NCBI GenBank assembly: GCA_035506195.1
Contig: DATJPV010000023.1
Span: forward strand, 1,050-65,049
DNA length: 64,000 bases
Reading direction: 5' to 3'
DNA from: Patescibacteria group bacterium
Lineage (GTDB): Bacteria > Omnitrophota > Gorgyraeia > Gygaellales > Profunditerraquicolaceae
Made by a program: the position numbers and the translations under genes. How positions within the stretch are numbered: the first letter of the stretch is position 1; the number at the start of each line of letters is the position of its first letter. The notes under the pieces are model-generated. The model did not search any database and had not been told where the DNA came from. It worked only from the letters and a program-made list of their open reading frames with translations. This document shows positions 526 through 56,759 of the stretch, one piece after another.

Positions 526-996
526 TTACCATCTAAAGTGTGCGAACGCCTTATTAGCTTCGGCCATTTTATGCGTATCGTCACGTTTCTTTATGGCAGA
601 ACCTTCGCCCCTGTATGCCGCAGCGATCTCTTCCGCAAGCTTCTCTTCCATGGCCTTGCCTTTTTTGGTCCTGGCAAAATCCCTGATCCAGCGCAGGGCG
701 ATGGACGTACCGCGCTCCTGCCTTACTTCAACCGGGACCTGGTAGGTGGCGCCGCCTACGCGGCGAGGCTTGACCTCCAGGCGGGGCCGGGCATTGTCGA
801 TGGCCTTATAGAAGATCTTCAGGGGATCGGACTCATTAAGCTGCTTTTGCAATACTGCAAAAGCGCCATAGACGATCCTCTCGGCAATCGCCTTCTTGCC
901 CTGGTCCATGACCATGTTGATGAACTTTCCTACGACGGGGCTGTTGAATTTAGGGTCAGAGACAACTTTTCTTTCCTGTGCTTTTCTTCTTCTCAT
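526..996 (-). CDS. rpsG: 30S ribosomal protein S7
   Basis: 156-aa ORF with [22 protein letters not shown] and the C-terminal KAFAHFRW. It lies between rpsL and fusA. Confidence 0.98.
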
Positions 997-1012
997 GAGT
1001 AGGTCCTACTCC

Positions 1013-1411
1013 TTATTTGGCTTTCGCAGGTGCCGCGCTTTCTTTGGGGCGCTTGGCGCCGTATTTTGAGCGCGATTTCTTCCTTTGGTTTACGCCTGCA
1101 GCATCGAGAGTGCCGCGCACAATATGATAACGCACGCCGGGCAGGTCCTTCACGCGGCCGCCTCTGACCAATACGATGGAATGCTCCTGCAGGTTATGGC
1201 CTTCGCCGGGAATATAAGCCGTGACTTCAATACCGGTAGTCAGGCGCACCCTGGCAATCTTTCTTAAGGCGGAGTTCGGTTTTTTGGGCGTCATGGTACG
1301 GACTTGCAAACACACCCCTCTTCTCTGGGGGCATGCCTTAAGGGCCGGTGCCTTCGTCTTTTTCTTCTTTGAGATCCTGCCGATCCTGATGAGTTGTGTG
1401 ATAGTTGGCAT
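1013..1411 (-). CDS. rpsL: 30S ribosomal protein S12
   Basis: 132-aa ORF starting MPTITQLIR with [25 protein letters not shown] and GHNLQEHS, all typical of S12. Confidence 0.98.
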
Positions 1412-1423
1412 AGGTAATAATCC

Positions 1424-4400
1424 TTAGGCTTTTTCCGCCGTCGTCAGCTCCTCTTCCTTGGGTTCATCTTTCTGCGCCTTTGCCTCCCTGACTAATTCGA
1501 TCTCGCGGTGCGTGCGAAAACCGGTCCCCGCCGGGATCAAGTGCCCGACGATAACGTTCTCTTTCAGGCCGAAAAGTTCGTCGCGCTTGCCTGAGGCAGC
1601 GGCATCGGTAAGTACGCGGGTAGTTTCCTGAAAGCTGGCCGCGGAAATGAAGCTTTCCGTGGTCAACGATGCTTTCGTAATACCCAATAACAGCGGCGTG
1701 GCCAACGCGGGTTTACCGCCTTTTTTAATAATCCGCAGGTTCTCCTTCTGAAATCTCCATTTATCTACCTGTTGGGTAGCCAGGAATTCCGTATCGCCCG
1801 CGTCTTCTATTTTTACTTTTTTAAGCATCTGCCTGATGATCAGCTCGATATGTTTGTCGTTGATGCGCACACCCTGCAGGCGGTATACTTCCTGCACCTC
1901 GTTGACCAGGTATTCCTGCAGGACCTTGTCGCCGCAGACCCTCAAGATATCCTGTAAAACTACCGGGCCGTCGGTGAGCTGCTGGCCGGCAACGACCTTA
2001 TCGCCTTTATAGACGTTGGGGTGCTTGCCGTGCGGAATCGCGTACTCTCTCTGCATGCCGGTGGGCGACTTGACGATAATAACGCGCTGCCCTTTCTTGG
2101 ACTCTCCGAATTCCACGAAACCATCGATTTCGCTGATGATCGCCGGGTCCTTGGGCCGACGCGCCTCGAACAACTCCGCCACGCGAGGAAGACCGCCGGT
2201 GATGTCCCTGGTCTTACCCACCAAGCGCGGAGTCTTGGCCAGAAGATCGCCGGCCTCAACCCGCTGCCCGTCCTTGACCAGGATGTGCGCGCCTATGGAA
2301 ATCGGATAAATACCCAGCACTTCTTCCTTATCATCCAGGATGAGTATCTGCGGATGGAATTCCTGTTTATGTTCGACCACTACGCGTTCGGTCAACTTGG
2401 TAACCGGGTTGAGCTCTTCGCGAATGGTTATCTCGTCTTTCAAATCTTCGTATTTCACCCGGCCGCCTACTTCGGTCAGAATGGGCGAGGTGTACGGATC
2501 CCAGCGGATGAACGCAATGCCCTTGGCCACCTCTTCCCCTTCGGGCAAGCTGATGAAGGAACCCTGCGGTACCGGATAACGCTCTAATTCCCTGCCTTGC
2601 TTATCATTGATACTGATGGACCCGTTCCTGTTCAGAACGACGAACTCTTTATTCTTGGCGGTAACGCGCAGGCCGTGGTACTTGATGACGCCTTTGTTCT
2701 TTGCCTTGATAAAGGATTGCGCAACGATTCTGGAAGCGGTACCGCCGATATGGAAGGTCCTCATGGTCAGCTGGGTCCCGGGTTCGCCGATGCTCTGTGC
2801 GGCGATGACACCGACCGATTCTCCTACCTCTACGATCCTTCCGGAACCTAAGTTCCTGCCGTAACATTTGCAACAGACGCCCCGGCCGGATTCACAGGTA
2901 AGGACGCTGCGGATACGTATCTTTTCTATGCCCAGCCTTTCGATCATCTCGGCTTTTTCTTCCGTAATCTCCGACCCCTGCTCGACAATGACGGTATCGG
3001 TAATAATGTCTACGATGTTATCCAGCGCGACCCTTCCGACGATGCGGTCCTTGAGACTGACCACCACTTCGTCGCCTTCGATGATCGCGGCTACGGTGAT
3101 GCCGTTAAGCGTGCCGCAGTCGTCTTCGACCACAATGACTTCCTGAGCTACGTCTACGAGCCTGCGGGTCAGGTAACCCGCATCTGCCGTCTTAAGCGCG
3201 GTATCAGCCAGACCTTTGCGTGCGCCGTGGGTAGAAATAAAATACTCCAACACCGTCAGCCCTTCGCGGAAATTTGCAGTAATGGGGTTTTCGATGATCT
3301 CGCCCGAAGGCTTGGCCATCAGACCGCGCATCCCTGCCAGCTGTCTTACCTGCAGGCGGGAACCTCGCGCGCCGGAGTCAGCCATCAAAAAGATCGGATT
3401 AAAAGGCTCCATCTCCTTGAAGAGAAGATCCGCAACGCGGTCGGTGGTATGCGTCCAGACGTCGATAACTTTATTATATCTTTCCCTGTCGGTAATGATG
3501 CCCCGGCGGTATTGTTCTTCGACCTTGGAGACCTCGGCCTTGGCTTCCTTTAAAACGTCGGCTTTGGCTGCGGGGATCTTCATATCGTCGATAGCAATGG
3601 ACATGCCGCCGTAGGTGGCAAACTGAAAACCTAATTTCTTGATATCATCTAAGAGCTCAATGGTACGGGTGTGGCCGAAGCGCTTATAACAATCCGCGAC
3701 AACCTCCCCGACCGTCTTTTTGTTCATTTCTTTGTTCACGAAACCGAATTCTTCCGGCAAGACCTGATTGAAGATCACCCGGCCGACAGTCGTCGTCACC
3801 ATCTGGCGTTCGTTACTGAGGTTTTTTTCCTCCAGGTCATATACCTTATACAACCGCAGGTTGATCTTTGCGTGCAGCTCGACTTCTTTATCTTCGTAGG
3901 CGATCAAAACCTCATCGGCGCCGCTGAAGGTCTTATTCTCCCCTTTGACGCCTGGTTTGATCTTGGTCAGATAGGAAACTCCGAGGATGATATCCTGCGT
4001 AGGGCTGACGATGGGGCGGCCATCGGCAGGAGAAAAAACGTTATTGCTGGCAAGCATCAGGATTTTTGCCTCCAGCTGAGACTCCAGCGAAAGCGGCACG
4101 TGTACGGCCATCTGATCGCCGTCGAAATCCGCGTTGAAGGCGGTACACACCAACGGATGGATCTTAATAGACTTTCCTTCGATCAGGACCGGCTGGAACG
4201 CCTGGATACCCAAACGGTGCAGGGTCGGAGCGCGGTTAAGCAGGACAGGATGGTCTTTAATGACTTCGTCCAGTATGTCCCAGACCTCGATCTTGCCGCG
4301 TTCCACCATGCGGCGCGCGCCCTTGATCGTATGCACGAAACCTTTTTCCCTTAACTTCTTGATGATGAACGGCTCGAACAGTTCCAGGGCCATCTGCTTA

Positions 4401-5491
4401 GGAAGGCCGCACTCATGCAACTTCAGATCCGGGCCGACCACAATAACGGAGCGCCCGGAATAATCCACGCGCTTACCCAGAAGATTCTGTCTGAAACGGC
4501 CCTGTTTGCCCTTAAGCATATCCGAAAGCGATTTTAGCGGCCGGTTATTCGCGCCCATGACCGCCCTGCCGTGCCTGCCGTTATCAAGCAGCGCATCCAC
4601 CGCTTCCTGGAGCATACGTTTTTCATTGCGGATAATGATCTCGGGGGCATTCAACTCCATCAGTTTCTTAAGGCGGTTATTACGGTTAATGACGCGGCGA
4701 TAGAGGTCATTGAGGTCGGAAGTGGCGAAGCGGCCTCCGTCCAGGGGGACCAGGGGCCTTAAATCCGGAGGTATCACCGGCAGGATCTCCAATACCATCC
4801 ATTCGGGCTTGTTGCCGGAAGCCTTGAAGTCTTCGATGATCTTCAAGGTCTTAAGGGCCTTGCGGTTGCCTAAGGCATCCTTGGATTTCTCCAGGTCGCG
4901 GCGCAATTTACGGCAGACGCTGTCAAACTCCAGCTCCTTGAGCATCTCCTGAACCGCTTCTGCTCCGATCTTTGCCTTGAAGTTTGCCCCGTATTTATTC
5001 AATGCCTCCTGGTATTTCTCTTCGTTTAAGAGCTCTCTCTTCTTGAGCGGCGTGTTGCCGGGGTCAACGACGACATACTCCTCGTAGTAAATCACTTTTT
5101 CCAGGTCCCGCAAGGTCATATCAAGCATCGCCGACAGGCGCGAAGGAACTGCCTTAAAAAACCAGATATGCGTAACCGGCGTTGCCAACTCGATATGGCC
5201 CATACGCTCGCGCCTGACCGAAGAGCGGTCCACGATCACCCCGCAGCGGTCGCAGGTGATGCCTTTGAACTTTATACCTTTATATTTACCGCAATTGCAT
5301 TCCCAGTCGCGCACCGGGCCGAAAATCTTTTCGCAGAACAATCCGTCCTTTTCGGGCTTGAGGGTACGGTAATTGATCGTCTCGGCCTTCTTGACTTCCC
5401 CCTTAGACCAGGATTTAATGATCTGGGAGGAGGCAATCTTGATCGCGATACTATCAAACAGGATTATTTCTTTAATCTCTTTTTCTTCCAT
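1424..5491 (-). CDS. rpoC: DNA-directed RNA polymerase subunit beta-prime
   Basis: 1355-aa ORF with the catalytic [12 protein letters not shown] motif, an N-terminal zinc motif (CNCGKY...CDRCGV), and a position after rpoB. Confidence 0.99.
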
Positions 5492-5492
5492 A

Positions 5493-8400
5493 TTATTTAG
5501 TCTTCTCCGTCCGGATATCCAGACCCAAACCCTGCAATTCTTTCACCAGAACGTTGAACGATTCGGGTGTACCGTGAGTGAGCCGCTGTTCGCCTTTCAC
5601 AATCGCTTCATAGATGCGGGTTCTTCCAGAGACATCATCGCTTTTGACGGTAAGCATTTCCTGCAGCGTAAACGCAGCGCCATAAGCCTCCAACGCCCAA
5701 ACTTCCATTTCCCCCAGCCTCTGGCCGCCGAATTGGGCCTTGCCGCCGAGGGGCTGCTGGGTAACCAGGGAATAGGGGCCGATAGAACGGGCGTGGATCT
5801 TCTCGTCGACCAAATGCACCAGTTTCATGATATAAATATAGCCGACGGTAATCTGCTGGTCGAACTGTTCGCCGTTATAGCCGTCGTGCAGCGTCACTTT
5901 TCCGTTTTCCGGCAGGCCTGCCTTCTTGAGCATTTCCTTGATCTCTTCTTCGGTGGCGCCGTCAAATACGGGGGTGTCCACTGCAAGGTTAAGCATTTTA
6001 GCCGCCCAGCCAAGATGGGTCTCCAGGATCTGGCCGACATTCATACGCGAAGGAACGCCCAGGGGGTTCAAGACGACATCGATAGGAGTGCCGTCTGCCA
6101 GGTACGGCATATCTTCTTCGGGCAGGATCCTGGCCACCACGCCCTTGTTCCCGTGCCTTCCGGCCAATTTGTCGCCTTCGGCAAGCTTGCGCTTGGTGGC
6201 GATATACACTACCACTCTCTTGAGAACACCGGGAGGCAGCTCATCGCCGCGCCTGACCTTTTCGATCTCCTGCTGCTGTTCTGCCAACAACTCCTGGACC
6301 TGCTCGTCAAAAGAAGAGGCCAACATCTTTGCCTCTTCGTTATCGCTGAAATCTATCTTTTCCACCTTGCCCTTATCCACGCCCAGAAGCTGGCTTAAGC
6401 GGGTGATCTTTTCCGTCTGCACGAACTCTATTTCCTGTTTATAGTAGGCCTTAAGCTCACGGATCTTGGCCAATTCCTTGGTCTTTTCTTCCTTGGTCTT
6501 TCTGCCGCGGTCCTTGCGGGCGAATACGTGCACATCGACGACAAAGCCTTCCACGCCCGGCGGAACGGTCAAGGAAGTATCCCGCACATCGGAAGCCTTT
6601 TCGCCGAATATTGCCCTCAGGAGCCTCTCCTCCGGGGAAAGTTCGGATTCAGTCTTCGGGGTTACTTTGCCGACCAGGATATCGCCCGGCCCGACCTCTG
6701 CGCCGATACGGATAATGCCTGTCTCATCGAGGTTGCGCAGGGCATCTTCGCTTACGTTGGGGATATCGCGGGTCACTTCTTCGTTGCCCAGGCGCGTTTC
6801 GGTCGCCTCGATCTCGAATTCCTCTACGTGGATCGAAGTGAGCATATCTTCCCTGACGACCCGCTCGCTTACCAGGATGGCGTCTTCAAAGTTGCATCCG
6901 CGCCACGGCATGAATGCGCACAACAAGTTCCTTCCCAGGGCGAGTTCCCCGCCCCTGGTACATACGCCGTCAGCGATCACCTCGCCCTTGTCCACGTGGT
7001 CGCCCACCTTGACCAGCGGTTTCTGGTTCAGGCAGGTATCGGCGTTGGTGCGCAAAAATTTCTTGAGATGGTAGATCGACTTACCGATCACGATCGAAGA
7101 GGCATCTACGCTGGTCACCTTTCCGGAGTCCGTGGCTACGACAACGGTGCCGGAATCACGGGCGACCTTGGCTTCCATGGCGGTGCCTACCAAGGGGGAT
7201 TCACACACCATCAAAGGAACTGCCTGCCGTTGCATGTTTGAACCCATGAGCGCGCGGTTGGCATCGTCATGCTCTAAGAAGGGGATCAGCGAGGCAGCCA
7301 CTGAAACCAGCTGTTTAGGAGAAACGTCCATGTATTCGACCTGTTTGGCGGAAACCTTGACGTAATCGCTCTTGTGACGGCAGGCCACTTCCTTCTCGAC
7401 AAAATAGCCCTCGCTATCCAGAGGGACATTTGCCTGCGCGATCACTTTGTCTTCTTCGATGTCGGCGGTCAAATATTCGATCTTACGGGTCACGCGGCCT
7501 TCCTCGACTTTTCTGTAGGGGGTCTCGAGCAGCCCCAGGGAATTAACCTGGGCATAGGTGCTCAAAGACGCGATCAAGCCGATGTTCGGGCCTTCGGGCG
7601 TTTCTATGGGGCATATCCTGCCGTAATGGGACGTATGGATGTCCCTGACCTCAAAGCCGGCACGCTCGCGCGAAAGGCCTCCGGGACCCAGGGCGCTGAG
7701 CCTGCGCTTGTGGGTCATCTCGGCCAAGGGATTAACCTGGTCCATGAACTGCGAAAGCTGGCTGCGGGAGAAGAAATCCCTGATCTGGTTGGAAAGCAGT
7801 TTTGAATTGATCAAATAATGCACGCTTAAGTTGCTGAAGTCCCCCAGTATGCTTAAACGCTCCCGTATGGAGCGCTCCACCCTGGACAGGCCGATGCGGA
7901 TCTGGTTCTGTACCAATTCTCCGACGGTCTTGACGCGGCGGTTACCCAGGTGGTCGATATCGTCGATCTTGCCGACGCCTTCGTGCAGCTTGATCAAATA
8001 TTCCATGACCTTAATGACGGTGGATGAATCCAGGATCCTTTTTTCAACCGACACATCCATGTCTAATTTTCTGTTCAGGATAAAGCGCCCCACCCTTTCC
8101 AGGTCATAACGGGCGGGGTCAAAAAATAATCTATAGAATAAAGCCTCGGCTGCCTCTTTGGTAACCGGCTCTGTCGGCCGCATCTTGCGGTAAAAATCAA
8201 GATAGGCCTCTTCCTTGTTCTTGGTATAGTCTTTTTTAAGGGTATTGTGGATTTCTTTGTATTCCGAACTAAAGGCGGAAAGGATCTCCTGGTCGGTTGA
8301 GAAACCCAGGATCCTCAAGAGCTGGGTGGCGGGAAAGTTCCGGCGCCTGTCCACATAGGCGATGATGGTCTCGGACAAGTCGTATTTGAATTCAAGCCAG

Positions 8401-8897
8401 GCGCCCCGGTACGGGATGATGCGGCCGTGGAAAATCTTTTTGCCTGTGGGGTGGCTCTCCTCTTCGAAGGAAACGCCCGGAGAACGCTGCAGCTGGCACA
8501 CGACCACGCGTTCATCGCCGTTGATAATGAATGTGCCGGTATCGGTCATCAGCGGGATCTCGCCGAAATAGGCGTCCTGCTCTCTGGTCTCGTGGGGCGT
8601 GGTAAGCCTGAATTTTACTTTAAGGGCGGAGGCATAGGTAAGCGCGCGGCGTTTGCACTCCGCAAGGTCATATTTTGATTTACCGAGCGTATAGCTGATG
8701 AACTCCAACTTTACCGAACGGTTGGAGTCTTCGATCGGGAAGACCTCTTCAAAGACCTCCTGCAAACCGATAGACTTACGCTCCTGGGACGGGACGTCTA
8801 CCTGCAAGAACTCACGGTAAGACTCAAGTTGCAGATCCAGGAGATTCGGCAAATCGTAGATTTCTTTTAGCTTGGCAAAATTTTTACGCTTATTCAT
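5493..8897 (-). CDS. rpoB: DNA-directed RNA polymerase subunit beta
   Basis: 1134-aa ORF with RHGNKGVV and [14 protein letters not shown] motifs. There is a 1-nt gap to rpoC. Confidence 0.99.
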
Positions 8898-8942
8898 GTA
8901 AGGTCGACCTTTTGTAGAACCCGCAAGGTTTTTTCGATACGC

Positions 8943-9338
8943 TTACTTTAACTCAACGGTGGCCCCGGCAGCTTCGAGCTTCTTCTTCATGTCTTCGGCT
9001 TCCTCTTTCGGAACGCCGTCTTTAATCGGTTTGGGGGCACCATCTACCAGGTCTTTGGCTTCCTTCAAGCCGAGGCTGGTCATCGTGCGGACTTCCTTGA
9101 TGACGGCGATCTTGTTGGCGCCGGCGCTCGTCAGGACCACGGTAAAAGCGGTCTTCTCTTCCGCGGCCGGTGCGGCGGCTCCTGCGGCGGCTCCTGCGGT
9201 CGCAGGCCCGGCAGCCATCATCGCAACGCTTGCCTTCACGTCGAATTTCTCCTCCAGGGCCTTAACCAAATCCGAAAGCTCAAGGACGGTCATGCCCTCG
9301 ATCGACTTGATTAATTCTTCTAATTTTTCACTTGCCAT
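8943..9338 (-). CDS. rplL: 50S ribosomal protein L7/L12
   Basis: 131 aa with an Ala-rich hinge and the C-terminal [39 protein letters not shown]. Confidence 0.98.
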
Positions 9339-9349
9339 AGCTCCTCCTT

Positions 9350-9877
9350 TTAACTACCTTTTTTTTGTTTGATTTGGTCAAGACAGATAACCAGTTTTTG
9401 CAATGTATTATGCAACACCATCACGAAGCCGGTGATCGGTGATTTTATCGCAATGACCGCCCGCGTCCTGAGCGTTTCTTTTGACGGCAGCTTTGAAATC
9501 GCCTCGATATCCTTGGTTTCCAGGAATTTATCCTGAAGCAGGCCGCCGGCCAGTTTAAGCTTATCGTGGTCTTTGGAAAAATTGAATAGCACACGCGAGG
9601 CCTCTACCGGCTCTTCCGGGATAAACACCAGGCCGCAGGGGCCTTCGATCGCCTTTACTATCGCCTCCACGCCGGTATCCTTCAGGGCGCGCCTGGCAAC
9701 GGAATTTTTGACCACAAAGACGTCGGCATGCGAGGCCTTCAACGACTGACGCAGGGCCGTGATATCGGGACTGGAAAGACCGGAATACTTAAGAATGAAA
9801 ACGGTGCCTGATTTCTTCAGGTACGCCTTAATGCGGTTTTCGGATATTTCTTTCACTAACAAACCGATCTTTTTCAT
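9350..9877 (-). CDS. rplJ: 50S ribosomal protein L10
   Basis: 175 aa, positioned between rplA and rplL, with an L10-like N-terminal region ([16 protein letters not shown]). Its start overlaps the rplA stop by 4 nt. Confidence 0.93.
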
Positions 9878-10554
9878 ATCACAAGCCTCAAGCCGGGATT
9901 CATAGTAGCCGAAATGAACATGCTCTTTACAAACTTGCCCTTGACGGAGGACGGTTTTGCTTCGGTCAGTGCCTCGATGACGCGGGAGGCGTTATCGTAC
10001 AGTTTGTCATCGTCAAAGGAGACCTTTCCCACCGACAGATGCACTCCGCCTTGTTTATCTACGCGGAACTCAACCTTTCCCTTCTTTACGTCTTGGATAG
10101 CCTTGGCGATATCATTGGTGACGGTGCCTGTTTTCGGGCTGGGCATCAACCCCCGGGGCCCCAGGACCTTGCCCAGGCGGCTTAGGTCTTTCATCATGTC
10201 GGGAGTGGCGATCGCACAATCAAAATCAAGGAACCCGCCGGCTACTTTCTCGATCAATTCGGTGCCGCCGACGTAATCCGCCTGCGCTTCCTGTGCGGCC
10301 CGTTCGTGCTCGCCTTTGCAGAACACCGCAACCCTGATCTTCTTGCCGGTACCGTGGGGAAGGACAACCGTGCCGCGGACCATCTGATCCGACTTCTTGG
10401 GGTCCACGTTAAGATTGAAATGGAGGTCTACCGCGCTGTCAAATTTGACGACGGGGATTTTTTTGAGCGCAGCGATCGCCTCCTTCAGTTCGTAGGTCTT
10501 ATCCCTGTCTACCTGTTTTTCGGCTTCTTTATACCGCTTGCTGCGCTGTCTCAT
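9874..10554 (-). CDS. rplA: 50S ribosomal protein L1
   Basis: 226 aa with the [11 protein letters not shown] and [15 protein letters not shown] motifs. Confidence 0.97.
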
Positions 10555-10558
10555 CGCA

Positions 10559-10984
10559 TTAACCCTCTACGGAAATGCCCATGCTGCGGGCGGTACCGGT
10601 AATAATCTTTAACGCCTGCTCCATATCGGAGGTATTCAAGTCTTTCATCTTCAGCTTGGCGATCTCTTCTGCTTGCTGGCGGGTTACCGTACCGATCTTC
10701 TCTTTGCCGGCAATACCGGAAGCCTTCGCCAGATTAGCCGCCCTCTTCAGGAGCACCGATGAAGGAGGGCTCTTGATGATGAACGTAAAAGTCCGGTCCT
10801 CAAAAACGCTGATGACTACCGGCAGGATGAGGCCATCCCTGCCCTTGGTTTGGTCGTTGAACTGTTTGCAGAACTGCATGATATTTACGCCGTGCTGGCC
10901 GAGGGCCGGGCCTACGGGAGGAGCGGGGTTTGCCTGTCCGGCGGGCACGTGTAATCTGATTTGCGCGGTTACTTTCTTAGCCAT
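10559..10984 (-). CDS. rplK: 50S ribosomal protein L11
   Basis: 141 aa with [30 protein letters not shown]. It starts 2 nt after the nusG stop. Confidence 0.98.
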
Positions 10985-10986
10985 CG

Positions 10987-11514
10987 TTATACCTTCTCTA
11001 CCTGCCAGTATTCCAGCTCTACGGGCGTAGACCTGCCGAAGATGGAAACACTGACCTTTATTTTTCCTTTTTCCGGGTGCACCTCATCGATAGTCCCGTT
11101 AAAGTTCACGAACGGGCCGTCGATCACCCTTACCTGCTCGCCCTTATCGAAGATGATCTTCGGGCTGGGCTTGACGTTGGTCTCCTGGGATTTCTTGAGG
11201 ATACTGTCGATCTCGGTTTGCGGCAGCGGCATGGGCTTCTTTCCCAAGCCGATAAAGCCGGTCACCCCGGGCGTGGTCTTTACTAAAAGGTAGCTTTGTT
11301 CATTAAGTTCCATCTCCACCAGCAGATACCCGGGGAAAAATTTTCTTTCCGATATGCGCTTTTTGCCGGAACGAATCTCTGAGATTTGTTCGGTGGGGAT
11401 CACTACCTTATTGACAAATTCCTGGGCACTTTGTGCGGCAATCCTGTTTTCCAGCAATGCCTTTACTTTATCCTCTGCGCCAGTCTGTGTATGAACGACG
11501 TACCAGCTTTTCAT
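10987..11514 (-). CDS. nusG: transcription termination/antitermination factor NusG
   Basis: 175 aa with an NGN domain ([14 protein letters not shown]) and a KOW motif ([21 protein letters not shown]). It lies in secE-nusG-rplK synteny. Confidence 0.96.
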
Positions 11515-11702
11515 CTAAACAAGACACTCAATCCTTTGGAGAGCACAAGGTCGATAACGCCAATGAAGATCGCCATAATAAAGGTAAACGCGATGACGAC
11601 GCCCGTAGAGCCAACCAACTCCTCCCTGGTCGACCAGGCTACCTTCCCCAGCTCTTGCTTGACTTCTTTTATGAACGTGATCGGCTTTTGCAGCATGCTC
11701 AT
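11511..11702 (-). CDS. secE: preprotein translocase subunit SecE
   Basis: 63 aa with KEVKQELGKVAWSTREEL followed by one C-terminal TM helix. It overlaps nusG by 4 nt and follows tRNA-Trp. Confidence 0.9.
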   Translation of the reverse strand: MSMLQKPITFIKEVKQELGKVAWSTREELVGSTGVVIAFTFIMAIFIGVIDLVLSKGLSVLFR

Positions 11703-11736
11703 TTCTATACGATGATTCCTTCTGCTTTCGTTACTA

Positions 11737-11807
11737 CAGGAGCGGCAGGAGTCGAACCTGCAGTAACGGTTTTGGAGACCGTTGGTTTGCCATTAACCGA
11801 CGCTCCT
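11737..11807 (-). tRNA. tRNA-Trp (anticodon CCA)
   Basis: I hand-folded the reverse complement as follows. Acceptor stem AGGAGCG/CGCTCCT. Anticodon stem ACGGT/ACCGT with loop CTCCAAA. T-arm GCAGG-TTCGACT-CCTGC. No CCA is encoded. Confidence 0.9.
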
Positions 11808-11855
11808 ATGAACTATGTATCCGAACCACTGCAATCAAACAGCACAAAGGAAAAA

Positions 11856-12005
11856 CTACTTTATTTCTTTGTGGGGCGTGTGTTTCCGGTCAAACCTGCA
11901 AAACTTGCTGATTTCAAATTTATCCTGATGTTTCTTTTTATTCTTGGTTGTCGTATAATTCCGGTTCTTACAGGTCGTGCATTCTAAGGTGATGATTTCG
12001 CGCAT
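11856..12005 (-). CDS. rpmG: 50S ribosomal protein L33
   Basis: My own translation gives [49 protein letters not shown], 49 aa and so below the ORF-track cutoff. It has the L33 zinc-ribbon CxxC pattern and the classic position upstream of tRNA-Trp/secE. Confidence 0.92.
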
Positions 12006-12114
12006 GTTTTTATCCTAGTTATCCCTGCGCTTAATCGCTTGAAGATTGCTACGCAATCTTCTGCACAAGCGCGTTATGAATTCTCATCTACTTAAGAACT
12101 ATAAGAGAATTCTA

Positions 12115-12187
12115 AGCTGGAGACGGGAATTGAACCCGTGACCCCGTCCTTACCAAGGACGTGCTCTACCAACTGAGCTACTCCAGC
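12115..12187 (-). tRNA. tRNA-Thr (anticodon GGT)
   Basis: The reverse complement is GCTGGAGTAGCTCAGTTGGTAGAGCACGTCCTTGGTAAGGACGGGGTCACGGGTTCAATTCCCGTCTCCAGCT. It forms a clean cloverleaf with anticodon loop TTGGTAA. Confidence 0.94.
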
Positions 12188-54594: not shown

Positions 54595-56403
54595 TTATGG
54601 TACGGCGTTCAATGCCTGCCAGGCCTTATCGGCGTTATCGTATTGTTTGAGCTTTTCATAGATCACCGCCAGGTTGTAGAGCGCCCGTCGGTCAGACGGG
54701 TCCAGCGCACGCGCAGCCTTCAACGCCCGCACTGCCTGAGGATAGACCTGTAATTTTCCGAAGGAGATGCCCGCAAGTATGTACATCTGGGGCGTAGGGC
54801 CGGCGGCGAGTTCCTTACCGATTATTCCCAGCGCCTGGCTGAATTCGCCTAAGCGCATGAGCGCAATGATCTCTTTCTCCTTCGGAGAGAATGCGGGGTC
54901 AAGCTCATCCTTGAAGACCTGCCCCTGTTCCTGCGCCAGAAGTTTCAGGCGGCGGTTGGCCTGCCAGTAAAAATAATCCCGCTCCAGCGCTGCCGCATAA
55001 GCCCGACGGGCCCGATCATACTGTTTCATCGCCCGATAAATATCCCCAAGCTGTATATAGGTGACCAGGTTTTCCGGTTCGCGCCGCGCCGACTGCCTGG
55101 CTTCGGCCAAGGCTTGCGCATAGAAGCCCCGCTGGGCCAAGGCAGATATTAAGAACGACCGGGTAATAAAGCTTACGGAGGGCTCCATCAGGGCCAGATT
55201 ACGGCGATAGAACGGAAGCTCCTGCCTCCAGCCACCGGCGTTGGCGAAGGTAGAAAACCCATACCCGCATACAAGGGCAGCCGACAGTATGAGCAGGACG
55301 GTCATGCTGCGTATCCGCAGGAGCAGGTATGCGGCTACCAGGAAAACCCCCCATGATGCCAGGTACACCCAATGCTCTTCGGCCGCCAGTGACCCCGGGA
55401 ATTTATACATAAATCTTATTAGATACGACAGCATCAGGATGAACCAGGTGATCCCGGTAAAGACCGCATACTTTCTTTTTTTAAAAGCGAAAATGGTTAT
55501 CGCCGTCAGCGCTACCGCTAGGACTACTGCCGCAAAGGCCCCAGCTGACCAGTATCCCGATACCGGCTTGATCATGCGCAATACATGCAGCCCCTGCGGA
55601 GCGATCAGGAGGCTGAGGTATTCGCGGATAACGCTCCAAAAATTAAGTACGTCTCGCCCGATCCCGTAGCCGCCCTGCGGGGCTATCCAGACGGGGACAA
55701 GCACGGTAAGCCGCAAGGTAATATAGAGGGCGAAAAGGCTGGCAAAGGATATGCAATGAGACACTAGCGACCCCCTCGGGACTTTCGCTTTCATCCCGAT
55801 ACAGGCGATATACAAAGGAATAAGCGCAAGGAAGCCCGCCTCCCGGGATAATAGCGCACAGGCAAAACTGGCCAGAGAAAGCAAGTAATATGTTTTCTTC
55901 GAAGAAGCCGCATATGCGCTATAGGATAGCAGGCTCAGCAAGACCCATACCGCCAACAGCAGTTCGCCGCGGTCGGCGATATAACAGACTGTCTCGGTAT
56001 GCAGGGGGTGTACGCAGAACAAAAGCGCGCTCAATAATGCCAGCGAAAAACTTGAAAACACGCGATACACAAGGGCAAACCCCAGGAACGTGACCAAGGC
56101 ATGAATAAGGACGTTCGTCAGATGGTAGCCTGCCGGATTCAGCTTCCAGATGTGGTATTCCAAGGCGTACGACAGGCTCATCAGGGGCCGGTAATATTTG
56201 TACCCTTCGTCGAATACGGAAAATTTGAACAGGTCGGTGGAAAAAAGCAGCGGCGCCTTATGCCAGTCTTTGATGAGCTCGTTCTGGACTATCAGGAATT
56301 TATCGTCGGCGACAAAGTCTCCGCGCAACACCTGGCAATACAGGACGACGGCGAGGAACAAAAAAAACAAAAAAATATAAATACCGGGTATGTTCTTTTT
56401 CAT
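54595..56403 (-). CDS. TMTC/PMT-like GT-C membrane glycosyltransferase homologue with C-terminal TPR domain
   Basis: The first-loop motif [19 protein letters not shown] resembles the TMTC/DUF1736 F.[WY]DD...I..N signature. About 10 TM helices and C-terminal TPRs follow. I set the start at ATG 56403 (MKKNIPG). The track start at 56418 is a GTG inside the upstream terminator stem. Confidence 0.65.
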
Positions 56404-56408
56404 CTGTG

Positions 56409-56459
56409 TTAAAAACACTGCCCTCTAACGATGAACCGCAGTACACAATTAGAGGGCAG
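56409..56459 (-). terminator. intrinsic terminator after the small basic protein gene
   Basis: A 10-bp stem pairs ctgccctcta (56418-56427) with tagagggcag (56450-56459). On the minus-strand RNA it is followed by UGUUUUUA. The next ATG is only about 15 nt downstream. Confidence 0.7.
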
Positions 56460-56478
56460 GATTTTCTACCTTACTGTC

Positions 56479-56718
56479 TTATCTCTTTTTCTTTTTGCCG
56501 CCTCTTTTCATCTTGGCGCAGGACACGTCGCCTTTTTTGTCGATGAAATAGAGATAGCCCTCTTTCCTCTTGATGCCTAACTTCACGAGTTTTTTAGGGC
56601 TGCCGCCTTTTTTGCCGGCTCTGGCCATCTTGGCGCAGGACACGTCGCCCTGCTTATCAAGATAGTAAAGATACCCCTTTTCTCTCTTGACACCTGCCTT
56701 CGCTACTTTCTCTGCCAT
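56479..56718 (-). CDS. 79-aa lysine-rich protein made of two tandem ~39-aa repeats (unknown family)
   Basis: The sequence is MAEKVAKAGVKREKGYLYYLDKQGDVSCAKMARAGKKGGSPKKLVKLGIKRKEGYLYFIDKKGDVSCAKMKRGGKKKKR. The strong SD GGAGGTG lies 9 nt upstream of the ATG, and the gene has its own terminator. The start is at ATG 56718, not the GTG at 56730. Confidence 0.7.
   Translation of the reverse strand: MAEKVAKAGVKREKGYLYYLDKQGDVSCAKMARAGKKGGSPKKLVKLGIKRKEGYLYFIDKKGDVSCAKMKRGGKKKKR
56509..56532 (-). repeat. 24-nt exact intragenic repeat, copy 1 (encodes GDVSCAKM)
   Basis: catcttggcgcaggacacgtcgcc is identical to 56626-56649. The offset is 117 nt, or 39 codons. Confidence 0.95.
56626..56649 (-). repeat. 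24-nt exact intragenic repeat, copy 2 (encodes GDVSCAKM)
   Basis: catcttggcgcaggacacgtcgcc is identical to 56509-56532. Confidence 0.95.
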
Positions 56719-56759
56719 GTTATTCTTCACCTCCTTCCCTCACTTGTTTAGTGACACGT

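Follow-up and report, generated by a model that had tools for sequence, protein, structure and literature searches.

A small gene on the minus strand of a 64,000-nucleotide (nt) stretch of an Omnitrophota contig (DATJPV010000023.1, positions 1,050 to 65,049, assembly GCA_035506195.1; hereafter the window) encodes a strongly basic protein of 79 amino acids (aa) that probably binds nucleic acid, and from its sequence features we tentatively propose that it is a nucleoid-associated protein (NAP) of an undescribed family, coating or compacting DNA. The net charge of ~+18, the ARGxKKGGSPKK linker between two repeats, the RGG of each unit, the histone-H1-like tails of some homologues, expression signals at the level of ribosomal-protein genes and a patchy phylogenetic spread are together best fitted by an abundant, non-specific nucleic-acid binder. 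Both the family and the fold appear to be new, while small, basic and abundant proteins that bind nucleic acid are a familiar kind.

Two basic repeats and their predicted fold

The coding sequence (56479..56718, minus strand) runs from the ATG at 56718 to the TAA stop at 56479-56481, and its translation, MAEKVAKAGVKREKGYLYYLDKQGDVSCAKMARAGKKGGSPKKLVKLGIKRKEGYLYFIDKKGDVSCAKMKRGGKKKKR, exactly matches a deposited protein (HTY44965.1) that is named "hypothetical protein" and carries the source label "Patescibacteria group bacterium". The open reading frame (ORF) is a genuine gene. The protein has a mass of 8.8 kDa, an isoelectric point (pI) of 10.2, and 21 Lys and 5 Arg against 4 Asp and 3 Glu, which agrees residue for residue with the count in the sequence-only reading, an earlier model-made interpretation of the window that used no database searches. 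That reading had also described two repeats, and we find them in the DNA as well as in the translation as two 39-aa units. Unit 1 (aa 1-39, 56602..56718, minus strand) consists of a strand, a KREKG loop, a YLYYL-DKQG-DVSCA hairpin and the segment MARAGKKGG; unit 2 (aa 40-79, 56482..56601, minus strand) opens with SPKK and continues with a strand, a KRKEG loop, a YLYFI-DKKG-DVSCA hairpin and a KRGGKKKKR tail. The four SPKK codons, S40-P41-K42-K43, lie at 56590..56601 on the minus strand. In an alignment of 40 Omnitrophota sequences the linker residues K37, G38, G39, P41, K42 and K43 are invariant; the N-termini of the orthologues all read MA[EQDK]K, and in the window's protein an RGG stands behind each repeat.

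The sequence-only reading had called for a structure prediction, and AlphaFold, given this 40-sequence alignment, returned a confident all-beta model with a predicted local distance difference test score (pLDDT) of 87.7 and a predicted template modelling score of 0.69. It contains six strands, three per repeat (residues 3-6, 16-20 and 26-30 in unit 1; 42-45, 55-59 and 65-69 in unit 2), and each unit is modeled as a short strand, a basic loop and then the YLY[YF]x-DKxG-DVSxA hairpin, with the C-terminal tail at lower pLDDT. The protein is thus predicted with confidence to form two equivalent three-stranded beta-meander units within one small all-beta domain that has no detectable solved relative.

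Searches of Pfam, NCBIfam, PHROGs and PADLOC returned no significant match to the 79-aa protein, and a sequence search of the PDB returned none either, in line with the earlier statement that the family was not recognised. The recurring weak similarities are to beta-propeller blades only. DUF5050 (PF16472) is the commonest sub-threshold Pfam match, touched by 13 of 43 diverse members with a best E-value of 0.005, and the window's protein scores 13.5 bits against its 27-bit cut-off. The family profile matches the YWTD propellers of LRP6 with E 0.002 and 21.6 bits, a score summed over sub-threshold repeats (per-domain E 12-61), and a precomputed match to PF27482 (Beta-prop_YycP), marked "faint", is found in one homologue. 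A propeller blade is therefore possible as the distant origin of the repeat unit, judging from these sequence similarities, rather than as a family to which the protein belongs. The AlphaFold prediction for a homologue with six units (P0123), made without an alignment, reached a pLDDT of 41 and is uninformative on ring closure. The resemblance to WG/KWG repeats suggested earlier did not hold up: we rejected a WG/KWG or choline-binding repeat as candidate, with no such Pfam match at E ≤ 10 and only one of the 43 members touching Choline_bind_2 (E 0.037). In the literature that we searched, on the NAPs of Omnitrophota, PF27482, YycP, propellers of two blades and the chromatin of DPANN, the family is not described.

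Expression signals and conservation of the gene

An extended Shine-Dalgarno (SD) sequence, AAGGAGGTGA, lies at 56727..56736 on the minus strand, 8-9 nt before the ATG, and includes, at a distance of 9 nt, the GGAGGTG at 56728-56734 that the sequence-only reading had pointed out. Its duplex with the canonical anti-SD is worth -17.6 kcal/mol, which ranks first among the 56 ORFs of the window (next -15.2 kcal/mol with alternative starts allowed, median -7.3). Orthologues carry AAGGAGGTGA or AAGGGGGTGA ahead of the ATG in nearly all loci. Past the stop codon there is a hairpin resembling an intrinsic terminator (56412-56465, minus strand), made of a 12-bp G+C-rich core stem with an A-U extension and a structured 20-nt loop and followed by UGUUUUU; it is as had been described ahead of the next ATG, has a folding energy of -30.5 kcal/mol (z -5.35), and none of 200 shuffles was equally stable. 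A strong G+C-rich hairpin, typically of -25 to -45 kcal/mol, directly follows the stop codon in nearly all orthologous loci. A check for dispersed repeats found no further copies of the stem within the window, and an Rfam search of the locus found no RNA family.

The codon adaptation index (CAI) of the small gene, calculated against the window's six ribosomal-protein genes rplKAJL and rpsLG, is 0.778, the highest among the window's ORFs, and the reference genes themselves score 0.72-0.76. When the small gene was compared with its neighbours over 80 loci, it preferred Phe TTC (0.72 vs 0.36), Ile ATC (0.63 vs 0.37), Arg AGA (0.49 vs 0.12) and Ser TCT+TCC (0.66 vs 0.39) and shunned the codons GGG, ATA and TTA; paired tests of the Phe, Ser and Cys contrasts gave p<1e-8. 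By this sequence measure the departure has the direction expected from translational selection. High expression, as the sequence-only reading had claimed, is well supported by these proxies, namely the strongest SD of the window, the top CAI and the codon bias, and the protein is probably among the most abundant of the cell. For an Omnitrophota predator, Ca. Velamenicoccus archaeovorus, transcriptome and proteome tables have been published (PMC12583861).

Absence of the ORF from related genomes, which had been named in advance as a finding that would speak against the earlier interpretation, is not what we see. At E ≤ 0.01, 3395 relatives are present in the protein database; among the top 120, most are from Candidatus Omnitrophota, and these 120 are 78-100% identical to the window's protein and 77-87 aa in length, with "hypothetical protein" as the name of all that have one. 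Relatives occur in at least 548 species-representative genomes, mostly of Omnitrophota. Mean identity to the window's proteins is 78.8% for the small protein and, over the same loci, 70.3% for UvrA; it is 53.7% for PanC and 49.2% for the aspartate dehydrogenase (Asp-DH)-family protein, and the small protein is better conserved than UvrA in all 56 of 56 loci. These identities indicate stronger purifying selection on the small gene than on uvrA.

The order dapB, class I/II aminotransferase, folK, panC, Asp-DH-family gene, small gene, uvrA (54595-60724 in the window) is kept in most of 81 Omnitrophota loci; in 73 of them the small gene is preceded by a co-directional Asp-DH-family gene (median gap 32 nt), and in 63 uvrA lies downstream (median gap 126 nt). 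The window and 13 other loci have, between the small gene and uvrA, a gene for a membrane protein of ~600 aa with C-terminal tetratricopeptide repeats (TPRs). In the window its mechanically called ORF starts at GTG 56418, inside the terminator stem; ATG 56403 (MKKNIPGIY...), 14 nt beyond the end of the hairpin, is the more plausible start, and we saw no recognisable SD ahead of it. The gene order of Omnitrophota is also present on contigs assigned to Halanaerobiales (L045), Deltaproteobacteria (L006) and "bacterium" (L028), whose labels thus appear to be wrong; it is missing from those assigned to Nitrospirae (L040, L058), Elusimicrobiota (L062), Babeliaceae (L051) and Woesearchaeota (L072).

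The terminator stem itself recurs between species. A near-identical stem, GCCCCTGTA...TACAGGGGC, is found in L005, L011, L013-L015, L019-L022, L024, L029, L031, L035, L037, L039, L041, L044, L047, L048, L053 and L064, and a second one, CTGCCCTCTAA...TTAGAGGGCAG, is common to the window, L038, L043 and L066; such conservation of a terminator stem's sequence across species is unusual. Elsewhere in the window, the minus strand carries tRNA-Thr, tRNA-Trp, secE, nusG, rplK, rplA, rplJ, rplL, rpoB, rpoC, rpsL and rpsG at 526-12187.

Wider family, proposed function and its alternatives

An exhaustive profile search collected 1030 clusters (50% identity) at E ≤ 0.001, almost all of them two-unit proteins with a basic linker and tail. 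The distant members come from metagenome-assembled genomes of Myxococcota, from "Deltaproteobacteria GWA2_38_16" and from Woesearchaeota/Nanoarchaeota, where the gene lies alone amid unrelated neighbours, and outside Omnitrophota the SPKK degenerates to [KR]-P-x-[KQE]-[VI]. Histone-H1-like tails rich in Lys, Ala and Pro (K/A/P) are present on L072, L046, L067, P0143, P0235, P0157, P0166, P0233 and P0196. The tail of the L072 protein (5001-5417, 138 aa) reads (KKKAVKKKAV)n and that of P0262 (KKVAKK)n, and long C-terminal K/A/V/P-rich repeats are also seen on L031/L035. Relatives are further found on 18 predicted viral contigs of IMG/VR, among small early-type genes. The sequence-only reading had asked whether single-repeat versions exist, and seven complete ones, of 43-51 aa (e.g. 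MGRIIAKEVVVRKPGFLYYIDGKGNVCEAKMARGGKKKKKKKKKK), are present on these predicted viral contigs, which are the only source of convincing single-unit ORFs; the apparent single-repeat entries of the metagenomic protein set look mostly like frameshifted or truncated calls. The viral ORFs (L101, L103-L108) consist of one repeat and a lysine tail and lie in AT-rich predicted viral genomes (GC 0.26-0.39), with a ParB-like gene near the one in L103. Since such ORFs exist, the repeat unit can presumably pair with itself. At the other extreme, there are proteins in which the unit is present four, six or more times.

We propose that a rigid, pseudo-dimeric beta core would hold three lysine-rich segments toward the phosphate backbone, namely the KREK/KRKE loops, the near-invariant ARGxKKGGSPKK linker and the RGGKKKK tail, with the SPKK of the linker possibly serving as a minor-groove-type motif. 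The long H1-like K/A/P tails of homologues would strengthen the same binding activity, and the single-unit viral versions would function as homodimers that reproduce this fold. The SPKK of histone H1 and sperm H2B forms a minor-groove-binding turn. Compared with these histones, sea-urchin sperm H2B included, the linker reads KKGGSPKK with P-K-K invariant in Omnitrophota, and the motif occurs singly inside a folded protein.

The defining traits of the NAP class, small, basic and abundant, all describe the 79-aa protein (8.8 kDa, pI 10.2, and abundance by proxy from SD, CAI and codon bias). Like HU/IHF, chlamydial Hc1 and the archaeal Sul7d, Cren7 and CC1, it falls in the 7-10 kDa range, is strongly basic and is apparently very highly expressed, and some of its homologues bear H1-like K/A/P tails as do actinobacterial HU and Hc1. 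Perhaps comparably to the genes of small NAPs, this gene stands alone outside Omnitrophota, and the family is spread patchily over bacteria, archaea and viruses, a distribution that by analogy would be typical of chromatin proteins. We found no similarity in sequence or fold to HU/IHF, Hc1, the histone fold or Sul7d/Cren7/CC1; in contrast to the HU fold, the histone fold and the SH3-like barrel, the protein is predicted to be a duplicated three-stranded beta-meander. A bolder version of this proposal, which we regard as possible though doubtful, is that a duplicated, propeller-blade-like unit of 35-39 aa equipped with SPKK/H1-type lysine segments constitutes a new structural class of chromatin protein, which would be the principal nucleoid protein of Omnitrophota and would also belong to Myxococcota, to DPANN archaea and to their viruses, the last keeping the ancestral homodimeric single unit.

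Several observations weigh against the assignment as a NAP. Classic NAP genes are usually monocistronic, whereas the Omnitrophota gene, unlike those of small NAPs, trails a biosynthetic cluster (dapB-aminotransferase-folK-panC), 32-41 nt behind the Asp-DH-family gene at its end. No conserved sigma-70-type promoter was found within 200 nt upstream over the 80 loci (mean score 7.9 of 12, barely above the 7.4 of coding-sequence controls), and the best site in the window scores 7/12. Because the upstream stop codon is only 41 nt away in the window and no such promoter was found, the gene may be the last cistron of the cluster or may use a promoter that we do not recognise. The earlier description of the terminator as the gene's "own" therefore stands for the hairpin itself, while a separate expression unit is uncertain. 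The SD energies assume the canonical anti-SD rather than one taken from the host's 16S rRNA, and conservation of this extreme degree is commoner among ribosomal proteins than among NAPs. Fusion partners are heterogeneous and include an OmpA-domain membrane protein, a GAF protein with zinc ribbons and transmembrane proteins; a search of PDB, Pfam and NCBIfam for DNA-related domains in P0153, P0158, P0221 and others gave only OmpA, GAF, zinc ribbons, Prok-RING and the PADLOC family PDC-S18. One fusion counts for the proposal: in P0153 (452 aa) the two-repeat module is N-terminal to a region matching the candidate defence protein PDC-S18 (residues 104-212, E 2e-12), and this region has a D...E-x-K-like motif (IDIFAIDAKHNPYILEFKKGKD), suggesting from sequence that the partner carries a nuclease-like motif. 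As a set, the fusions do not indicate one function. P0175 and P0197 have in common an unannotated C-terminal domain of ~90 aa that ends in ...VN[SK][VL]PKKYC.

The conservation above UvrA would also suit a protein that acts on RNA or the ribosome rather than on the chromosome, for instance as a lineage-specific ribosomal protein, an rRNA chaperone or an accessory to a translation factor, and so would codon usage and an SD that equal or surpass those of the window's ribosomal-protein genes, the small size, the very basic composition and the RGG behind each repeat. K/A/P-rich extensions are found on some RNA-binding proteins, too. We nevertheless consider this explanation, the main alternative, unlikely, since Pfam and NCBIfam gave no match to a ribosomal-protein or RNA-binding family, the gene lies 45 kb away from the ribosomal-protein cluster of the window (526-11702), and a ribosomal component would not be expected to occur so patchily across Omnitrophota, Myxococcota, DPANN archaea and viruses, or in single-unit form in the last.

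The blade similarities raise a different explanation, in which the protein is a two-blade propeller fragment that closes into a ring, for example as a trimer with six blades, and acts as a scaffold or ligand binder with the lysine tails being secondary. The 39-aa period is near the length of a propeller blade, natural proteins have 1, 2, 4, 6 and more units, and blades (DUF5050 in 13 of 43 members, the LRP6 YWTD repeats, PF27482) are the only recurring weak matches. All of these matches are, however, under the family thresholds (13.5 vs 27 bits; per-domain E 12-61), three strands instead of four are modelled in each unit, and the ring would carry a charge of +55 or more with no polyanion partner, so we judge a closed propeller improbable. 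Compared with the blades of YWTD (LDL-receptor class B), DUF5050 and Beta-prop_YycP proteins, the 79-aa protein is built of no more than two units (the viral forms of one) with three predicted strands each, and its extreme positive charge and lysine-rich linker and tail are unlike them. With WG/KWG and choline-binding repeats it has in common an aromatic-rich hairpin and a D-x-x-G turn, and differs in being cytoplasmic, without signal peptide, and in having two units in place of a long solenoid. Least probable, in our view, is a mobile protein of viral origin, for example an anti-defence or DNA-mimic-binding factor, that became fixed in Omnitrophota by chance: the 18 IMG/VR contigs with their small early-type genes and the one fusion to a candidate defence protein would suit it, and they are countered by the fixed housekeeping neighbourhood (Asp-DH upstream in 73 of 81 loci, uvrA downstream in 63), the very strong purifying selection, the host-like, highly adapted codon usage and the lack of a significant PADLOC or PHROG match for the 79-aa protein.

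Origin of the repeats and significance of the family

The two repeats, which would have arisen by tandem duplication, are still visible as a direct DNA repeat (56492-56592 vs 56609-56709) of 101 nt and 75% identity with a spacing of 117 nt, or 39 codons. Within it, the eight codons of GDVSCAKM are the same in both copies, G24-M31 of repeat 1 (56626..56649, minus strand) being identical in 24 of 24 nt to G63-M70 of repeat 2 (56509..56532, minus strand). The sequence-only reading had noted this core and its diverged flanks, and we confirm both: seven of the nine conserved residues upstream of the core use different synonymous codons, and from local codon usage the chance of a 24/24 core in the window's gene is ~0.0013. 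Comparing the codons of repeat 1 with those of repeat 2 in 72 orthologues, we found that the core is not identical in most of them, and that eight have a fully identical core where 0.1 would be expected. Among the codon pairs that encode the same residue in the GDVSCAK segment, 257 of 462 match exactly, against 183 predicted from local codon usage; when repeat 1 was paired with repeat 2 across GC-matched genomes, 226.7 ± 8.1 pairs were identical and none of 2000 permutations reached 257. The N-terminal part of the repeat has no excess at all (344 observed vs 344.3).

Gene conversion and selection on the nucleotide sequence had both been offered as explanations of the identical core, and only the former stands. 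The fully identical cores are mostly unlike one another across genomes (e.g. GGCGATGTCTCTTGCGCCAAGATG, GGTGATGTTTCTTGCGCAAAGATG and GGAGATGTTTCCGCTGCGAAGATG, compared with GGCGACGTGTCCTGCGCCAAGATG in the window), and the synonymous identity of the core among orthologues is only ~0.50, which together rule out selection on the 24-nt sequence. Since the core DNA varies between genomes and tends to be identical within a genome, conversion fits and nucleotide selection does not. On this codon evidence, the identical core is best described as the product of sporadic gene conversion over short tracts, acting where the two repeats are most alike, and not as a conserved nucleotide element; such intragenic conversion would now and then homogenise the ~24-nt GDVSCAKM segment.

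The Omnitrophota are widespread and almost entirely uncultured, and among them are many ultra-small forms that may be predators or depend on a host. That a protein better conserved than UvrA has been missed by every annotation resource marks a gap in the basic knowledge of this phylum. The family is small and easily synthesised, which opens these ideas to direct testing. The forms with one, two, four and six units, together with the faint link to propellers, may represent a natural case of repeat folds growing from a single peptide unit. If the 79-aa protein is indeed the main nucleoid protein of Omnitrophota, a new fold would join the short list of prokaryotic chromatin proteins, and a DNA-packaging module would be shared by bacteria, DPANN archaea and viruses.

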